DNA of 16,974 nucleotides from Ramlibacter sp. (GTDB taxonomy: Bacteria; Pseudomonadota; Gammaproteobacteria; Burkholderiales; Burkholderiaceae_C). Under the pieces are notes generated by a model. That model saw only the letters and a list, made by a program, of their open reading frames with translations. It searched no databases and was not told where the DNA came from. This document shows positions 2,638-11,939 of this stretch, one piece after another (positions within the stretch are counted from its first letter, which is position 1; each line of letters begins with the position of its first letter). The translations under genes were made by a program, and so were the position numbers. The DNA is taken from positions 1 through 16,974 of the forward strand of contig DATJJL010000385.1 of NCBI GenBank assembly GCA_035492155.1. The letters are read 5' to 3'.

Positions 2638-3147
2638 TCAGCGCATCACCGGCTCGTCGGGCAGCTCGTTCGGGTTGGCTTCGCCCGGCGCGAGCGGAAA
2701 GTGAAGCTCCAGCAGCGAGGTGACCGCGTCGATGGCCTGCGTGAGGCCTTCCTCGTAGCGGCCTGCGCGGAATGCGCCTTGCATCGTCCCGACGATTCGT
2801 TGCCATTCGCCCGCGGGCACACATGACGTGAGGCCGCGGTCCGCGACGATCTCGATCGCGCGTTCGGCCACGAGCAAGTAGATCAACACGCCGTTGTTGT
2901 GCTGCGTGTCCCACACGCGCAGCTTGCCGAAGAGGGCGACTGCGCGCTCGCGCGGTCCGGCATCGCGCATCACATAGCTCGTGGGCAAGCCTGCTTCGAC
3001 GCACACGCGAAGCTCGCCGCTGTGATGTTGCTCGCTCGATGCGACGCGCTGCGTGAGCCGCTCGACCACCGCACGCGGGATGACGCGGCGCGAATCGTCG
3101 TGCCAGCGATGTCGCAGAAGGCGTGCGATGCGCTTGTGCCAGGCCAT
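2638..3147 (-). CDS. TPM domain-containing protein (cytoplasmic; third gene of the LemA/TPM module)
   Basis: ORF 2638..3507 trimmed to the ATG at 3145-3147 (MAWHKRIARLL...). The start overlaps the upstream stop by 1 nt (TGATG). The core GELRVCVE...WDTQHNNGVLIYLLVAERAIEIVADRG matches the TPM/DUF477-type fold. There is no signal peptide. Confidence 0.8.
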   Translation of the reverse strand: MAWHKRIARLLRHRWHDDSRRVIPRAVVERLTQRVASSEQHHSGELRVCVEAGLPTSYVMRDAGPRERAVALFGKLRVWDTQHNNGVLIYLLVAERAIEIVADRGLTSCVPAGEWQRIVGTMQGAFRAGRYEEGLTQAIDAVTSLLELHFPLAPGEANPNELPDEPVMR

Positions 3148-4064
3148 CACCAGTTCCCCGAGGCGCCGCCGCCTCCGAAATCGCCGCCGCCACCCGATCC
3201 GCCCCAGCCGCCTGCGCCACCACCGAAGCCTCCGCCGAACCCACCCCCACGGCCGAATCCGCCCCCGCCGATCCACGGGCCGCCTACCGACGGTGCGATG
3301 CGCCCGCCGAAGCCGCTGACCAGCGTGAAGAACAGCGCGACGAGACCCGCAAGACCTGCAACCAGCATGCTCGAAGTGATCAGCAGCGCGAGCCCGCCGA
3401 CGGCGCCACCGGTAACGATGGAGCCCAGCGGCCGACCGAAGATCGCGCGCAGCACGCGTCCGGCGACGAACACGCCGACAAAAAGGAAGATCGCGAGGTC
3501 GCCCCAATCGAACCCGTGGCCCGTCGTGCGCTGCGGCTTGTGAGTCTGCGCAGGTGCCGGAAGCGGTTCGCCATTGATCCGCGCGATCAGCTGGTCGACG
3601 CCGTCACGCAAGCCGCCCGCGAAATCCCCTTGCTTGAATTTCGGGATCATCACGTCGTCGATGATGTTCTTGGCCGCGAGATCCGGAATCGCGCCTTCCA
3701 GCGCCTTCGCGACTTCGATGCGCACCTTGTGATCGTCCTTCGCCACGACGATCAGCACGCCATCGCCCACACCTTTGCGCCCTATCTTCCACGCGTTGCC
3801 CACGCGATTGGCAAAGCTTGCGTCGTCTTCCGGATGCGTCGTGGCGACCATGAGGATTGCCATCTGCGAGCCCTTCGATTGCTCGAAGGCCATGAGCTTG
3901 TCCTCCAGGCCCTTGATCTGGATCGCATCAAGCGTGCCCGTCTGGTCGATGACGTGCGCCGTGAGCGGCGGGATGGGCTGGAGATTTTGCGCTTGCGCCA
4001 GCGCGCACAAACACAGAACGCAGAGTGCGCAGAGTAAACGCAGAGTGCGCAGAGATTTATTCAT
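3147..4064 (-). CDS. TPM domain-containing protein, YgcG-like (signal peptide, TPM domain, TM segments, Gly-rich tail)
   Basis: 305-aa ORF. The signal peptide is MNKSLRTLRLLCALCVLCLCALAQA/Q. The TPM core is VIDQTGTL...ILMVATT...GVLIVVAKDDHKVRIEV. Hydrophobic segments follow, then a C-terminal tail GGGGFGRGGGFGGGFGGG...GGGGASGNW typical of this family. Confidence 0.85.
   Translation of the reverse strand: MNKSLRTLRLLCALCVLCLCALAQAQNLQPIPPLTAHVIDQTGTLDAIQIKGLEDKLMAFEQSKGSQMAILMVATTHPEDDASFANRVGNAWKIGRKGVGDGVLIVVAKDDHKVRIEVAKALEGAIPDLAAKNIIDDVMIPKFKQGDFAGGLRDGVDQLIARINGEPLPAPAQTHKPQRTTGHGFDWGDLAIFLFVGVFVAGRVLRAIFGRPLGSIVTGGAVGGLALLITSSMLVAGLAGLVALFFTLVSGFGGRIAPSVGGPWIGGGGFGRGGGFGGGFGGGAGGWGGSGGGGDFGGGGASGNW
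3150..3284 (-). repeat. Low-complexity Gly-rich (GGGF-type) coding repeat at the 3' end of the YgcG-like gene
   Basis: The + strand shows reiterated ccgcc/ccacc/gaagcc units. These translate on the minus strand to a tail of about 45 aa made of Gly/Phe/Trp. The same units produce a spurious Pro-rich ORF on the + strand. Confidence 0.7.
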
Positions 4065-4116
4065 GAAATTCTTCTGTGTCCTCTGCGAAACCTCTGCGCC
4101 CTCTGCGTTCGGCTGT
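4011..4116. mobile_element. Cargo-less (MITE/REP-like) inverted-repeat element of the ACAGCCGAAC + CGCAGAG-heptamer family
   Basis: The left arm (4011-4054) is ACACAGAAC plus 4 CGCAGAG copies at 4019, 4028, 4039 and 4048. The right arm (4081-4116) has 3 CTCTGCG copies at 4081, 4092 and 4101, followed by TTCGGCTGT. The reverse complement of 4092-4108 matches 4038-4054 and 4018-4034 at 16/17. The reverse complement of 4092-4116 matches the cassette arm 8841-8865 at 23/25. Confidence 0.5.
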
Positions 4117-4124
4117 CCGCGTGT

Positions 4125-4724
4125 TTACTTCTTCGCCCCGAAGTCCACCGTCGGCGGCTTAGAGATCTGCGCTTCGTTCTCCACCGTGAAGTTCGCCTTC
4201 GGCTGGTAGTGGAACATCATCGCGGTGAGGTTCGTCGGGAAGCTGCGTGCGAGCACGTTGTACTGCTGCACCGTCTGGATATACCGGTTGCGCGCGACCG
4301 TGATGCGGTTTTCCGTGCCTTCGAGCTGCACGCGCAAATCGCGGAAAGACTGGTTGGCCTTCAAGTCGGGGTAACGCTCCGATACTGCGAGCAGCCGACT
4401 GAGCGCGCCGGTGAGCTGCGATTGCGCCTGCTGGAACTGCTGCATCTTCTGCGGGTCGTTCAGCATGTCGGGCGTGACCTGGATCGACGTCGCTTTCGCG
4501 CGCGCCTCGACAACTTTCGTGAGTGTGTCCTGCTCGAAATTCGCCTCGCCCTTCACTGTCGCGACGAGGTTGGGGACGAGGTCGGCGCGCCGCTGGTACT
4601 GGTTGAGCACCTCGCTCCACGCGGCCTTGGTCTGCTCATCGAGCCGCTGGAAATCGTTGTAGCCGCAGCCGCCCAGCACAAGAGTCGTGAGGACTGCTGC
4701 GAGGATCAGGAGCCAGCGCTTCAT
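4125..4724 (-). CDS. lemA: LemA family protein (lipoprotein)
   Basis: 199-aa ORF. The lipobox is LVLGG/C. The canonical LemA core is present (AWSEVLNQYQRRADLVPNLV...RYPDLKANQSFRDLRVQLEGTENRITVARNRYIQTVQQYN). Confidence 0.9.
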   Translation of the reverse strand: MKRWLLILAAVLTTLVLGGCGYNDFQRLDEQTKAAWSEVLNQYQRRADLVPNLVATVKGEANFEQDTLTKVVEARAKATSIQVTPDMLNDPQKMQQFQQAQSQLTGALSRLLAVSERYPDLKANQSFRDLRVQLEGTENRITVARNRYIQTVQQYNVLARSFPTNLTAMMFHYQPKANFTVENEAQISKPPTVDFGAKK

Positions 4725-6810: not shown

Positions 6811-8823
6811 TCAGGGCGAAACGGCTGCCGACGCGGCGCCGACGCTCGCCGCCGCAGACGTCGTGCCATTTGTCGGCGGCCAGGCGAATTGAGCGGCGGG
6901 CCGCTGCTTGCCGATAGGCGCCGTCGCCTGCGCCTTGCGCACGGCGGCGATGTCTTCTTCGCTCGGGTACAGGCCCGACAGGTAGTAGTCGAACGCACGG
7001 CGTGCGATGGGCGCGGCCGCCTGAGCGCCGAAGCCCGCGTTCTCGACGACCATCGCCACGGCGATCTTCGGGTCGTCCGCCGGGGCGTACGCAATATAGA
7101 GCGCGTGGTCGCGATGGCGCTCCTCCGTCTGCGAGGCGTTGTACTTGGCGCCTTGTGCGATGCCCACCACCTGCGCCGTTCCTGTCTTGCCGCCGCTCGT
7201 GTAGGGCGCGCCGCGGAATGCCGCGGCAGCAGTGCCCTCGATGTTCACGCCCACCATCGCGTTGCGCACGATCGCGATGTTCTCCGGTTTCGCGACGCGC
7301 TCGCCCACCGTTTGCTGCGTGGGCGACAGCACCGCCTCCTTGCTGACGACGTCGACCACCTTTTCGACGAGGTGCGGCTTCATCTTGATGCCGTTGTTGG
7401 CCAGCGTCGCGACAGCCTGCGCCATCTGCAGGATCGTGAAGCTGTTGTAGCCCTGTCCGATGCCCAGCGAGATCGTCTCGCCTGCATACCATTTCTGCTG
7501 CTCGGCCTTGCGGTAGGCCGCGCGCTTCCACGCTGTGGAGGGCAGCAGGCCCTTCGATTCGCCCTGGATGTCGATCCCCGTCAAATCGCCGAAGCCGAAC
7601 TTGTGGGTGTGCTCGTAGATCGCGTCCACGCCCAGGTCGTTGGCGACCATGTAGTAGTACGTGTCGCATGACAGCACGATCGAGCGGTACATGTCGACCG
7701 CGCCGTGGCCCTCGGGTTTGTCGTCGCGGAACTTGTGCCCGCCGAACCAGAAGAAGCCCGGGTCGTGGTAGACCTGCTCGGGGCGGCGCTTGCCTTCCTC
7801 CAGCGCTGCGATCGCCATATACGGCTTGTAGGTGGAACCCGGTGGGTATGTGCCGCGCAGCGCGCGATTGAGCAGCGGCTTGTCGATCGACTCGTTCAAG
7901 GCCGTCCAGTTTTCCGTGTCGATGCCGTCGACGAACAGGTTCGGGTCGAACGTCGGCTTGCTGACGAAGGCGAGCACTTCGCCGGTCTTCGGATCGATCG
8001 CGACGAAGGCGCCGCGGCGGTCGCCGTACAGATCCTCGACGAGACGCTGCAGCTTGATGTCCACCGACAGCTGCACGGTGTTGCCCGGTGTCGGCGGGTG
8101 GCTGCGCAGCTTGCGGATTGCGCGGCCGGCTGCGGAGGTTTCCACCGCTTCGACGCCGGTCACGCCATGAAGCTGCTCTTCGTAGCTTTGCTCGATGCCC
8201 AGCTTGCCGATGTATTCGGTGCCGCGATAGTTGGCCTGCCGCGCTTCCGGCCAGTCCTCCATCGCTTCCTTTTCGGACTGGTTCACGCGGCCGATGTAGC
8301 CGATCAGGTGACTCGCCAATTCGCCCCATGGGTAATTGCGGAACAGGCGCGCCTTGATCTCCACGCCCGGAAAGCGCCACGCGTTGGCCGCGAACTTCGC
8401 GACTTCCTCGTCGGTGAGCTTGGTGCGGATCGGCAGCGATTCGATCGACTTGTTTTCTTCGAGCAGCTTCTTGAAGCGCTTCTTGTCGCGCGGCTGCACT
8501 TCGATCACCTGCCCGATGTCGTCGATGACTTTGTCGAGCGGCGCCGTCACGCGCTGCGGCTGTATCTCGAGCGTGTAGGCCGAGTAATTGGTGGCAAGCA
8601 CGATGCCGTTGCGATCGAGGATCAGCCCGCGGTTCGGCACGATCGGCACGATCGCCGTGCGGTTCGCCTCGGCCTGCTCGGCAAGATCGGAGTGGCGCCA
8701 GATCTGCAGATAGGAAAGCCGAAGGCCAAGCAGCAGGAAGCACACGACCACGACAAGGCTCGCGGCGAACACGCGCAGCCGGAACTTCGACAGGTCCGCT
8801 TCGACGTTTCTGAGCTCGGTCAT
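6811..8823 (-). CDS. mrdA: penicillin-binding protein 2 (elongasome transpeptidase)
   Basis: ORF 6811..8874 trimmed to the ATG at 8821-8823 (MTELRNVEADLSKFRLRV...), with GGAG 10-13 nt upstream. Catalytic motifs are STYK (PPGSTYKP), SCD (VLSCDTYYY) and KTGTA. The 17 extra N-terminal codons in the track (MRVLCALCVRLFVERST) are a translation of the repeat arm. The last ~50 aa form an Ala/Ser/Pro-rich tail. Confidence 0.9.
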   Translation of the reverse strand: MTELRNVEADLSKFRLRVFAASLVVVVCFLLLGLRLSYLQIWRHSDLAEQAEANRTAIVPIVPNRGLILDRNGIVLATNYSAYTLEIQPQRVTAPLDKVIDDIGQVIEVQPRDKKRFKKLLEENKSIESLPIRTKLTDEEVAKFAANAWRFPGVEIKARLFRNYPWGELASHLIGYIGRVNQSEKEAMEDWPEARQANYRGTEYIGKLGIEQSYEEQLHGVTGVEAVETSAAGRAIRKLRSHPPTPGNTVQLSVDIKLQRLVEDLYGDRRGAFVAIDPKTGEVLAFVSKPTFDPNLFVDGIDTENWTALNESIDKPLLNRALRGTYPPGSTYKPYMAIAALEEGKRRPEQVYHDPGFFWFGGHKFRDDKPEGHGAVDMYRSIVLSCDTYYYMVANDLGVDAIYEHTHKFGFGDLTGIDIQGESKGLLPSTAWKRAAYRKAEQQKWYAGETISLGIGQGYNSFTILQMAQAVATLANNGIKMKPHLVEKVVDVVSKEAVLSPTQQTVGERVAKPENIAIVRNAMVGVNIEGTAAAAFRGAPYTSGGKTGTAQVVGIAQGAKYNASQTEERHRDHALYIAYAPADDPKIAVAMVVENAGFGAQAAAPIARRAFDYYLSGLYPSEEDIAAVRKAQATAPIGKQRPAAQFAWPPTNGTTSAAASVGAASAAVSP

Positions 8824-8874
8824 GGTCGATCGCTCCACGAACAGCCGAACGCAAAGGGCGCAAAGGACTCGCAA

Positions 8875-8898
8875 AAAGCGCGAAATAAAGTGCGCTTC
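8875..8898 (-). terminator. Weak terminator-like hairpin just after the GxxExxY stop (inside the cassette, upstream of mrdA)
   Basis: The minus strand reads GAAGCGC-ACTTTATTTC-GCGCTTTTTG. That gives a 6-7 bp stem, a 10-nt loop and a T5 run. The stem is short, so function is uncertain. Confidence 0.25.
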
Positions 8899-9229
8899 AC
8901 AGATTGTTCACCAGACGTTGGATTCCCTTGGTGACCGGGAAAGCATGGAAGTTGATCAGCAGGCCCAACTTGTGCCCAGAGACCGAACGCTCCACGATGA
9001 AATCCGCTCGATACAGCAGGCCGATGTCGTGGGACTTGTATCTCCCGTAGACGGGAACTTCCCTTCGATAGTTCAGGTCCGCGTGCGAAAGTTCAATTTC
9101 GAGAGCCGCCGCATACGCACTTTCCAGCAGGCCGACGCCGAGCACGCGTTGCACTTCGACCGCAGCACCAATGATTTCACGGCTGCAGTCGAGGTCCAGG
9201 ATGTCTTCGCTTTGCGCCCTTTGCGTCAT
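8897..9229 (-). CDS. GxxExxY family protein (PD-(D/E)XK-like fold), internally shortened, possibly degenerate
   Basis: 110-aa ORF from the ATG at 9227-9229. It has the hallmark GVGLLESAYAAAL (GxxExxY) and the C-terminal KLGLLINF...GIQRLVNNL. The first 8-9 codons (MTQRAQSE) are encoded by the heptamer repeat arm. Compared with typical ~125-aa members, a segment of about 20-25 aa is missing between ...RADFIVERSV and SGHKLGLLINF. That segment normally holds the (I/V)ExK strand and the following helix. Confidence 0.7.
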   Translation of the reverse strand: MTQRAQSEDILDLDCSREIIGAAVEVQRVLGVGLLESAYAAALEIELSHADLNYRREVPVYGRYKSHDIGLLYRADFIVERSVSGHKLGLLINFHAFPVTKGIQRLVNNL

Positions 9230-9261
9230 CTTTGCGCCTTTTGCGTTCGGCTGTTCGGTGT

Positions 9262-9780
9262 TCAGAGCGGCCGGTTCTCGTCCGGATCGGGTGCGCGGCG
9301 CTGCGGCGCGAGCAGCACGATGCTCGCGACCGGCCACAACACGGCCTCGAACACCGGCGCGAGCACGATGTCCCAGCCGGGGAAGATGCCGCCCGCAATC
9401 ATGCGGATGACCAGCGAGATCCCGTGCGCCGCTGCGAACACCGGGAACACCTGCAGTGCCTGCGACGGCACGGTGAACCACAGAAGCCGCCGGTGAATGG
9501 TGATGGCGAAGAAGTTCAGCGCCGTGTAGGCGAGCGCGTGCTGGCCCAGGAGCGATGCCTGGTGCACGTCCATCGCGAGGCCGAAGATGAATGCGGCGCC
9601 CACTCCCACACGCAGCGGCTGGTGCACGGCCCAGAAAACGAGCGTGAGCGCGAGCAGGTCCGGCGTCCAGGCCGTGCGGCCGATCGGCAGCATGTTGAGC
9701 AGCAGGGCGCCGAGCAGCGACATCCAGATGAAGGCCGGGCTGGCGGGCAGCAGCAGCGGCTGGCCGGGTCGCATGATCAT
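9262..9780 (-). CDS. mreD: rod shape-determining protein MreD
   Basis: 172-aa polytopic membrane ORF. Its ATG overlaps the mreC stop by 4 nt (ATGA at 9777-9780). It sits in the canonical position after mreC. Confidence 0.85.
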   Translation of the reverse strand: MIMRPGQPLLLPASPAFIWMSLLGALLLNMLPIGRTAWTPDLLALTLVFWAVHQPLRVGVGAAFIFGLAMDVHQASLLGQHALAYTALNFFAITIHRRLLWFTVPSQALQVFPVFAAAHGISLVIRMIAGGIFPGWDIVLAPVFEAVLWPVASIVLLAPQRRAPDPDENRPL

Positions 9781-10700
9781 GGCGCGGGCCCTTTCTTGTG
9801 GGCCCCGGGCGCGGGCGTTTCCGGCGCGGGACGCGGCGGCAACTGGCGCGCGGTGCTGCCCAGCACCATCACATACCGTCCACCCTCGACGCGGGCCTGC
9901 GGCACGCAGCTGATCCGCGCAAACCCTGCGTTGCCGCGGCGCTCGACCTTCACGACTTTCGCCACCGGCACGCCCGGCGGGTAAACGCCGTCGACACCGC
10001 TGGTCGTGAGCATGTCGCCGGGCTGCACGTCGGCGTTACCGGCCATGAAGCGCAACTCGAGCGGGCCGTCGTCGGATTTCGGGTCGCCGTAGGCCACGCT
10101 GCGAGCGCCGGTGCGCGAGTTGAGCACCGGGATCGCGTGATCCCGATCGGTGATCAGCGTGACCTCCGACACCAGGGGCAGCACGCGGGTGACCTGGCCG
10201 AGCACGCCCGATTCGTCGATGACCGGCGAGCCGGATTCGATGCCCTGCGCGAGTCCCTTGTCGATGATGATCTTGCGTGTGTAGGGATCGGGGGCGTCGT
10301 ACAACACCTCGGCCGCTGTGGCGGGCACGGTGATCCGCTCCTTGAGGGCGAGCAGCTCGCGCAGGCGTCTGTTTTCCAGCAGAAGCTCGTCGACCTGGTT
10401 GGCGCGCTGCGACTGCATGGCGAGCTTGAGGCGGGATTGCTCCTCGTTGGCCTGCGCGGTGGAGAGCGACTCGAAATAGCCGGCGGTGTAGCGCACGGCC
10501 AGCACGGGCCGCAGCGCGAGCCATTGCATCGGGTAAAGCACGGTGGCGACACCCGCGCGAATGGGCTGCGCAAGCTTGAAGCGCGTGTCGGCGACCATGA
10601 GGAACAGCGCGACGGCCGAGAACACCATCAGCTTGGACAATGCTGATGGCCCTTGCTTGAAGAAGGGCGGCGGCGTGCGGTCTAAAGTGCCGAGGGGCAT
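9777..10700 (-). CDS. mreC: rod shape-determining protein MreC
   Basis: 307-aa ORF. It has an N-terminal TM segment, a coiled-coil (ANEEQSRLKLAMQSQRANQVDELLLENRRLRELL), a beta-barrel core (GSPVIDESGVLGQVTRV...SGVDGVYPPGVPVAKV) and a Pro-rich tail. Confidence 0.9.
   Translation of the reverse strand: MPLGTLDRTPPPFFKQGPSALSKLMVFSAVALFLMVADTRFKLAQPIRAGVATVLYPMQWLALRPVLAVRYTAGYFESLSTAQANEEQSRLKLAMQSQRANQVDELLLENRRLRELLALKERITVPATAAEVLYDAPDPYTRKIIIDKGLAQGIESGSPVIDESGVLGQVTRVLPLVSEVTLITDRDHAIPVLNSRTGARSVAYGDPKSDDGPLELRFMAGNADVQPGDMLTTSGVDGVYPPGVPVAKVVKVERRGNAGFARISCVPQARVEGGRYVMVLGSTARQLPPRPAPETPAPGAHKKGPAP

Positions 10701-10778: not shown

Positions 10779-11939
<1,161 letters not shown>

Follow-up and report, generated by a model that had tools for sequence, protein, structure and literature searches.

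In a 16,974-nt stretch of Ramlibacter sp. DNA (contig DATJJL010000385.1; hereafter the window, to which all positions refer), mreD and mrdA, which lie on the minus strand like the other genes of the mre region, are separated by a 420-bp cassette made of two inverted-repeat arms and a small open reading frame (ORF) of the GxxExxY family. We consider it probable that this cassette is an ORF-bearing copy of a palindromic repeat family of the Comamonadaceae that resembles repetitive extragenic palindromic (REP) sequences and MITEs (miniature inverted-repeat transposable elements). Taken as a whole, the evidence leans towards a hairpin element of this kind with an associated PD-(D/E)XK nuclease, analogous to the pairing of REP doublets forming hairpins (REPINs) with REP-associated tyrosine transposases (RAYTs). 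The element would consist of two arms of ~45-55 nt, each with four 9-nt units plus a terminal GGACAGCCGAA. In the proposed common form the arms would surround a short loop and no cargo, mostly over ~90-130 nt; in the rare form they would surround a GxxExxY nuclease gene, the N-terminus of which is coded by the 5' arm. The elements would settle in tight spacers just past stop codons, with ORF-bearing copies always co-oriented with the host operon. A search of the literature returned no description of these repeats and no link of GxxExxY to repeats, and the hairpin repeat family of Ramlibacter and its relatives is apparently undescribed.

A hairpin repeat with and without cargo

A metagenome scan with a 22-nt arm pattern returned at least 80 loci. 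Among the matches listed, 75 arm pairs were recognised in 80 metagenomic loci; 73 of the 75 are cargo-less and two enclose a GxxExxY gene, both between trpE and trpG (trpE|trpG). In these matches the cargo-less hairpins have a short loop and lengths of 50-220 nt, for the most part ~90-130 nt; several of the metagenomic contigs hold 2-3 copies each. Copies listed there mostly begin 3-20 nt past a stop codon, and of their flanking gene pairs 35 are tandem, 13 convergent and 6 divergent. The hairpin family is abundant, and copies with an ORF are its rare form.

One cargo-less copy lies in the window itself, between lemA and a gene for a TPM-domain protein (Table 1). An earlier note on this DNA had recognised it as a relative of the cassette and placed it at 4011-4116. 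The relationship stands, with arms at 4016-4053 and 4073-4110 and a copy that extends to 4119 (fold z = -6.4). These arms are of the CGCAGAG type and closest to those of trpE-type cassettes, the 5' arm being still GQPNAEGAEVSQRTQK. The mreD end of the cassette and the lemA-side end of the cargo-less copy share T(G/A)A-ACAC followed by CG(A/G)ACAGCCGAACGC. The two-unit motif CGCARARNNCGCARAR occurs eight times in the window, always within the cassette or the cargo-less element, compared with 0.33 occurrences expected by chance; a count of eight was reached in 0 of 200 shuffles. No empty lemA|TPM allele was found, both other contigs compared being filled.

This cargo-less copy also touches the reading of the neighbouring gene. 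The only in-frame start of the TPM-domain protein lies inside the hairpin loop, and the first ~25 residues (MNKSLRTLRLLCALCVLCLCALAQA; 3990-4064, minus strand), coded by the 3' arm of the element, resemble a Sec signal peptide, with the TPM domain directly after them. The same arrangement is seen in two other loci, L214 and L215, and in L214 the gene caller chose the same ATG. The repeat may have been co-opted as the signal sequence of this protein, or may have substituted for it. Rickettsia palindromic elements, which insert in frame in genes, offer a comparison. The C-terminal tail of the protein (3168-3270) is Gly-rich and of low complexity (GGGFGRGGGFGGGFGGG), and is encoded by imperfect 60-nt direct repeats that are unrelated to the element.

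Gene-bearing copies were collected by a scan for the GxxExxY clade in one genome per species, which gave 80 loci, about one per genome. All 80 belong to Comamonadaceae (Ramlibacter, Variovorax, Polaromonas, Ottowia, Xenophilus, Brachymonas and Acidovorax), and in ~65 of the 80 genomes the ORF lies between inverted repeats of 38-57 nt in which the same 9-nt units recur. A single orthologous site, trpE|trpG, accounts for 75 copies. At 70 of these 75, the ATG of the ORF overlaps the trpE TGA and the frame continues across the 5' arm into the domain, and the arm therefore encodes a conserved N-terminal peptide, P[DN]A[EK][DG]A[KE].TQRTQKE. Gene-bearing copies also occur at nadK|recN, at argB|ugd and between an unidentified gene and a livG-like ABC ATPase gene, so that ORF-bearing copies occupy at least five operon junctions. 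Protein clades match the junctions: the mreD type comprises P0002-5, the nadK type P0021/26 and the argB type P0019, next to the trpE type. All these ORFs point the same way as their operon, with a start 0-5 nt from the stop of the gene upstream.

These surveys agree with the multi-copy and mobile behaviour that the earlier note had ascribed to the unit. Arms at ~65 of the 80 GxxExxY loci and in many cargo-less hairpins mean that the repeat is not peculiar to mreD-mrdA, and the spread of ORF-bearing copies over different operon junctions is consistent with mobility. As to the question, raised in the same note, whether GxxExxY paralogues always sit between such arms, ~65 of the 80 genomes have them and a clade of Variovorax is armless.

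Further cargo-less hairpins were observed in the trp operons of at least 14 genomes of Polaromonas, Variovorax and Brachymonas (loci L012, L019, L020, L030, L033, L034, L050, L053-L056, L062, L064 and L065). They lie at other junctions, 0.9-2.9 kb downstream of the ORF, for instance just before trpD in L050, and two or three elements may share one trp operon.

Within a locus, the repeats change together, whether inverted or direct. At 52 trpE-type loci taken together, the two arms are reverse complements of each other at 1553 of the 1664 unit positions, and 11 arm positions show two or more co-varying states. Arm identity is 93% within a locus vs 81% between loci; for direct half-arms the figures are 88% vs 78% (permutation p < 1e-4). 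Concerted change of both direct and inverted repeats would be expected of co-evolving protein-binding sites or of copy-based turnover, and a stem by itself does not require concerted direct repeats. Cargo-less copies also follow the ORF-bearing arms of their own genome, with 79% identity in the same genome vs 74% (p = 0.0016).

The mreD-mrdA junction, filled and empty

The earlier note had delimited the cassette by 28-bp terminal inverted repeats, with one small gene on the strand of the operon, a start 4 nt past the mreD stop and an end 14 nt before the mrdA ATG, the Shine-Dalgarno sequence lying within those 14 nt. All of this was borne out (Table 1). The outer 28 nt (8838-8865 versus the reverse complement of 9230-9257) match at 27 of 28 positions, and the inverted repeat continues inwards to 47 nt per arm, 83% complementary, with the arms 326 nt apart. 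Each arm is a series of four 9-nt units of the form CGCARAGGN; those of the 5' arm read CGCAAAAGG CGCAAAGAT..CGCAAAGGG CGCAAAG and are preceded by a terminal CGAACAGCCGAA. This arm is in frame with the ORF, a feature absent from the earlier note, and codes the N-terminal peptide EQPNAKGAK, which is conserved in longer homologues.

Table 1. Features of the mre region and the cargo-less copy, with 5' and 3' given in the sense of the operon
Feature	Position	Strand	Remarks
mreB	10779-11849	minus	
mreC	9777-10700	minus	
mreD	9262-9780	minus	MreD, 86 bits on TIGR03426
mreD stop and 4-nt spacer	9258-9264	minus	stop TGA 9262-9264; spacer ACAC
5' arm	9211-9257	minus	four 9-nt units; ORF start ATG 9227-9229 inside
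Small ORF	8897-9229	minus	110 aa, GxxExxY / PDDEXK_3
Deletion junction in the ORF	8980-8981	minus	72-nt in-frame deletion; GTC microhomology
3' arm	8838-8884	minus	follows the ORF stop; reverse complement of the 5' arm
14-nt spacer and mrdA start	8821-8837	minus	spacer tGGAGcgatcgacc 8824-8837; Shine-Dalgarno GGAG 8833-8836; ATG 8821-8823
mrdA (PBP2)	6811-8823	minus	PBP2/MrdA, 755 bits on TIGR03423
Cargo-less copy	4011-4119	minus	junction of lemA (4125-4724) and the TPM-domain gene (3147-4064)

Joined, the two arms have a folding energy of -69.9 kcal/mol for the sense strand (z = -11.7) and of -73.3 for the antisense strand, in line with the long stem that had been foreseen for them, and the whole unit is predicted to fold with its arms paired. 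In the minimum-free-energy fold, UGGAGCG, which contains the mrdA Shine-Dalgarno sequence, pairs with CGCUCUG at the mreD end, a segment that includes part of the mreD stop, and lengthens the stem by 7 bp. A promoter and terminator scan of 8600-9500 found none in the cassette, and an internal promoter or polar terminator was rejected accordingly. Having no promoter or terminator of its own, and a start that overlaps or abuts the upstream stop, the ORF is placed for translation coupled to the upstream gene and would therefore ride on host transcription and translation. An Rfam scan of the whole window (E <= 1) matched no family.

That the cassette is a discrete insertion, as had been proposed together with an alignment of the junction as a check, is supported by empty sites. 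Two metagenomic contigs (L001 and L002) read TGA-ggcgctga-ATG, with mreD and mrdA 8 nt apart and no cassette; their MreD is identical to that of the window, and their flanks are 99.2-100% identical on both sides. Another locus (L003) is filled like the window, which amounts to a presence/absence polymorphism within a population ~99.4% identical. Likewise, the outgroup Ramlibacter solisilvae, whose MreD is 83% identical, lacks the cassette and has a 7-nt spacer. Mismatches between filled and empty contigs show no clustering around the junction. Lineages with mreD 87-91% identical at the nucleotide level have the cassette at the same junction, there with a full-length ORF; it is old at this site, and the polymorphism may therefore represent loss or allele exchange, not recent gain. 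For the near-identical empty alleles, non-acquisition is a further candidate.

With these alleles in hand, the notion that the junction holds a chance inverted repeat or an ancestral spacer, and no element, has a negligible probability. It could draw on the absence of a target-site duplication and on nothing else. We regard it as refuted by the empty sites, by the motif enrichment and by related arms at other loci, which number in the hundreds; fold z-scores of -11.7 to -13.6 also oppose it.

Two further states of the junction were observed. In L085 (1150-1180), a cassette with a full-length ORF has no 3' arm, and the ORF stop overlaps a GTG start of mrdA (TTGTGACC); arm and spacer are deleted precisely, and the ORF is thereby fused into the operon. 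In L220 (2017-2114) and L222 (742-839), where MreD is 97% identical, the cassette is absent and an unrelated 92-nt spacer with two short G+C-rich hairpins (GCCCCCCGAGGGGGC; CAGCCTCC...GGAGGCTG) takes its place, and an unrelated small palindromic insertion has therefore hit the same site. Because empty, filled, 3'-arm-less and unrelated-spacer forms are all found there, the mreD-mrdA junction is a turnover hot spot.

The cargo nuclease

The earlier assignment of the cargo to the PD-(D/E)XK-like GxxExxY family stands as far as the family is concerned: the ORF reaches 71.1 bits (cutoff 35) against TIGR04256 GxxExxY and 69.8 bits (cutoff 22) against PF13366 PDDEXK_3, with a profile match that spans only positions 2-70 of 116 in TIGR04256. 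The eponymous motif is present (G33-L-L-E36-S-A-Y39) and invariant in both homologue alignments. The catalytic motif is missing from this copy, and a deletion responsible for the loss had gone unnoticed. Of the PD-(D/E)XK core (D...E-x-K), D76 is kept, and E-x-K and QxxxY are gone. Against homologues of 134-150 aa, the protein aligns with an in-frame gap of 24 aa at the residues equivalent to 84-107 of the full-length homologue P0002, among them E86-x-K88 and RAQLLSY (QxxxY), and the window ORF is an internal-deletion derivative of a 134-aa protein. Because the deletion removes E-x-K and QxxxY, the window copy is almost certainly dead as a nuclease, and because E-x-K is lost, the cassette is probably a non-autonomous, decaying copy.

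In full-length homologues, D, E-x-K and Q are invariant. The AlphaFold2 model of P0002 (predicted local distance difference test score, pLDDT, 83) has a PD-(D/E)XK core, and its nearest solved structures are Cas4 SSO0001 and lambda-type exonucleases. Ratios of non-synonymous to synonymous substitution rates (dN/dS) are 0.06-0.10 between the window ORF and full-length mreD-type copies and 0.14 among trpE-type orthologues; the ORF has been under purifying selection for most of its history. A PDB sequence search returned nothing meaningful, PADLOC gave weak Cas4 hits only, and for the full-length homologue only, and PHROGs gave a single marginal family of unknown function. More divergent paralogues were sought in 1.2 Mb of DNA and none was found.

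Several other origins were considered and rejected. For a phage origin, there is no protein relative in IMG/VR, and the arm motif is in only one viral contig. A toxin-antitoxin system would need a partner gene and a retroelement a reverse transcriptase, neither of which accompanies the ORF. An integron cassette was set aside with no integrase in the window and mreD and mrdA as neighbours; moreover, integron gene cassettes stand in arrays with a single 3' attC, whereas here repeats lie on both sides of the ORF.

A nuclease gene that is present or absent among close relatives could also be a free-standing homing-endonuclease gene, each clade of which cuts its own empty junction and is copied by double-strand-break repair, with the arms as accessories. 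This would accommodate the one-to-one correspondence of protein clades and junctions, the patchy distribution of the cassette across MreD lineages and the purifying selection on a PD-(D/E)XK nuclease ORF. However, neither a co-conversion tract nor raised divergence was seen beside the junction, cargo-less hairpins at many unrelated sites cannot spread site-specifically, and the window copy, almost certainly inactive as a nuclease, nevertheless occurs in at least two samples. Since homing would also leave the concerted evolution of the eight 9-nt units unexplained, we consider it an improbable account.

Mechanism, objections and known systems

A gene that is physically and evolutionarily bound to a hairpin repeat with many cargo-less copies suggests a nuclease that recognises its own 9-nt arrays. 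Under the hairpin-element reading that we favour, intact GxxExxY nucleases would recognise these arrays or the hairpin itself, and would spread or maintain the elements in trans, as RAYTs are proposed to do for REPINs. In the mre transcript the arms would pair at roughly -70 kcal/mol and loop the cassette out, which would place the mreD stop beside the mrdA Shine-Dalgarno sequence, and the insertion would thus be tolerated. A ribosome terminating at mreD would melt the base of the helix and expose the mrdA ribosome-binding site, restoring the coupling that the 8-nt empty spacer gives. This looping-out in the mre transcript is less certain than the nuclease-element picture. By analogy with the Coxiella intervening sequence and Correia elements, the arm duplex would also be a plausible RNase III substrate, as the earlier note had supposed in suggesting that mrdA is uncoupled from mreBCD; the wobble-pair spectrum (below) lends this no support.

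It should be noted that a number of observations weigh against the favoured reading. The link between nuclease and arms, drawn from association and co-evolution, is correlative. The unit ends show no direct repeats that would mark a target-site duplication, and ggcgctga, the spacer of the empty allele, does not occur as a simple sub-string in the filled junction (acac...tggagcgatcgacc). The density of the repeat, at ~1 additional element per ~60 kb, is a rough and biased figure for sampled DNA as opposed to whole genomes. On the sense strand, ORF-bearing copies show 118 G.U pairs vs 160 A.C mismatches, and cargo-less tandem copies 79 vs 73; G.U is not enriched over A.C, so that these counts bear no mark of selection for the stem in the sense RNA. 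In a Variovorax sub-clade (L060, L061, L068, L070, L072, L074, L075 and L078) with a 129-132-aa GxxExxY gene at trpE|trpG, the arm-encoded N-terminus and the 3' arm have been lost together. Given these armless ORFs and the absent 3' arm in L085, the arms are therefore dispensable for persistence of the ORF. Finally, the trpE|trpG copy is conserved across Comamonadaceae genera and looks vertically inherited over genus-level time, and the gene may therefore be domesticated, not selfish.

Followed further, this last point leads to a gene with a cellular GxxExxY role (e.g., in the trp operon), to hairpins that are ordinary REP-like stabilisers of mRNA and to an mreD copy that is a stray paralogue. 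Conservation of the trpE|trpG copy across genera at ~one per genome, a dN/dS of 0.14 and a Variovorax clade that keeps the ORF without arms would all fit. A host gene of this sort is nevertheless difficult to reconcile with an N-terminus built from arm units in 70 loci, with arms and ORF that move together to at least five junctions, or with cargo-less copies that resemble the ORF-bearing arms of their own genome, and we assign it a low probability.

The absence of a G.U over A.C bias also counts against an adaptive RNA-processing module, in which selection would have favoured the stem for uncoupling mrdA from mreBCD, either as a site for RNase III or as a 3' stabiliser, and the ORF would be incidental. 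Such a module would account for a near-perfect 47-bp duplex on paper that draws the mrdA Shine-Dalgarno sequence into the base of the stem, and for elements co-oriented with the operon directly after stop codons; the Coxiella intervening sequence and Correia elements, both cut by RNase III, provide precedents. Near-identical strains lack the cassette, however, and the junction carries an unrelated 92-nt spacer where MreD is 97% identical and no 3' arm in L085. Moreover, the same hairpins stand at unrelated junctions by the dozen, and this speaks against a role peculiar to the mre operon. We judge this alternative unlikely as well.

The cargo belongs to a large family. A profile search at E <= 1e-3 gave 25,038 representative clusters (50% identity) of GxxExxY/PDDEXK_3, which is listed as 'Unknown' in a survey of PD-(D/E)XK proteins (PMC3424549). 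Some distant members (P0271, P0276, P0279, P0311, P0381 and P0389) have periodic low-complexity N-termini (TEGTEDTE, GRQGRQ, RQGRQGRQ, QGAQGAQGAE, SKGREGRKDRKE), which resemble the translation of short tandem repeats in DNA, like those of the Comamonadaceae arms. As far as protein sequences can tell, the repeat association may be general and reach beyond Comamonadaceae. Others (P0243, P0244, P0246, P0247 and more) are ~275-295 aa long with two matched stretches, and these are tandem double GxxExxY domains or fused neighbouring genes.

A broader proposal, which we put forward tentatively and consider rather doubtful, is that GxxExxY/PDDEXK_3 proteins are the cognate enzymes of widespread hairpin elements with arms of tandem repeats, in a partnership like that of RAYTs and REPINs but with a PD-(D/E)XK enzyme, and that these elements settle where one gene of an essential operon stops and the next starts, since the arms would loop them out of the mRNA in the manner of rRNA intervening sequences. 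A large function-unknown family would thereby gain a concrete hypothesis. The cassette would be a 420-bp selfish unit in the essential mreBCD-mrdA operon, with copies also in trp operons and at nadK|recN, and would offer a natural system for studying how insertions are neutralised at the level of RNA and translational coupling. There is also a practical side, in that the hairpins generate spurious N- or C-terminal extensions, perhaps real signal peptides, in the annotation of adjacent genes.

The element has features of four known systems. Phage free-standing homing endonuclease genes likewise place a small nuclease ORF between conserved, co-oriented genes, rely on host expression signals and are present or absent among close relatives. 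They differ from the element described here, which lies in a bacterial chromosome between long flanking inverted repeats, exists at many sites in a cargo-less derivative form and has no co-conversion tract that could be seen beside the junction.

Correia elements (CREE/NEMIS), Chunjie and other MITEs are small, have terminal inverted repeats and many copies, and are co-transcribed with their neighbours. Operon sites are tolerated and the inverted repeats are RNase III substrates (PMC2649163, PMC10969869); for example, RNase III cuts Correia elements at the terminal inverted repeats (PMC2649163), and a Chunjie MITE is found inside an operon without breaking it (PMC10969869). Unlike MITEs, the present element shows no target-site duplication, its arms are internally repetitive, and its full-length form codes for a small nuclease and for no recognisable insertion sequence (IS) transposase.

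The likeness to rRNA intervening sequences (IVSs), suggested from the outset, proved apt. The Coxiella IVS measures 428 nt, combines an inverted-repeat stem with tandem heptamers ahead of an ORF in decay, and is a target of RNase III cleavage (PMC4990558). With the 23S rRNA IVSs of Coxiella and Leptospira, which carry an S23p ORF, the cassette shares a length of ~420-430 nt, terminal inverted repeats, a long stem round a small ORF, short tandem repeats before that ORF, a tendency of the ORF to suffer deletions, and a position inside an essential transcript (PMC4990558). The cassette differs in occupying the spacer of a protein-coding operon and not 23S rRNA helix 25 or 45, and in an ORF that is PDDEXK_3 and not a four-helix-bundle S23p; those IVSs are excised by RNase III, whereas the stem here is a thermodynamic prediction.

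Formally, the element stands outside REPIN-RAYT systems by its enzyme class, outside IVSs by its host transcript and ORF family, and outside MITEs by the absence of a target-site duplication and an IS transposase. From the REPIN-RAYT pair it differs in that the enzyme is a PD-(D/E)XK GxxExxY protein of ~135-150 aa, not a Y1/HUH transposase, the arms are 9-nt tandem arrays where a REP is one hairpin headed by GTAG/CGTC, translation of the 5' arm supplies the N-terminus of the protein, and the gene has moved to at least five junctions. The parallels are nonetheless close. RAYTs are described in two studies (PMC5581495, PMC3116915) as single-copy, vertically inherited genes flanked by REPs, and here too a single-copy, largely vertical gene lies between inverted copies of a repeat. 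In both systems the same repeat recurs as many short palindromic extragenic elements just downstream of genes, and its variants follow the gene of the same genome.

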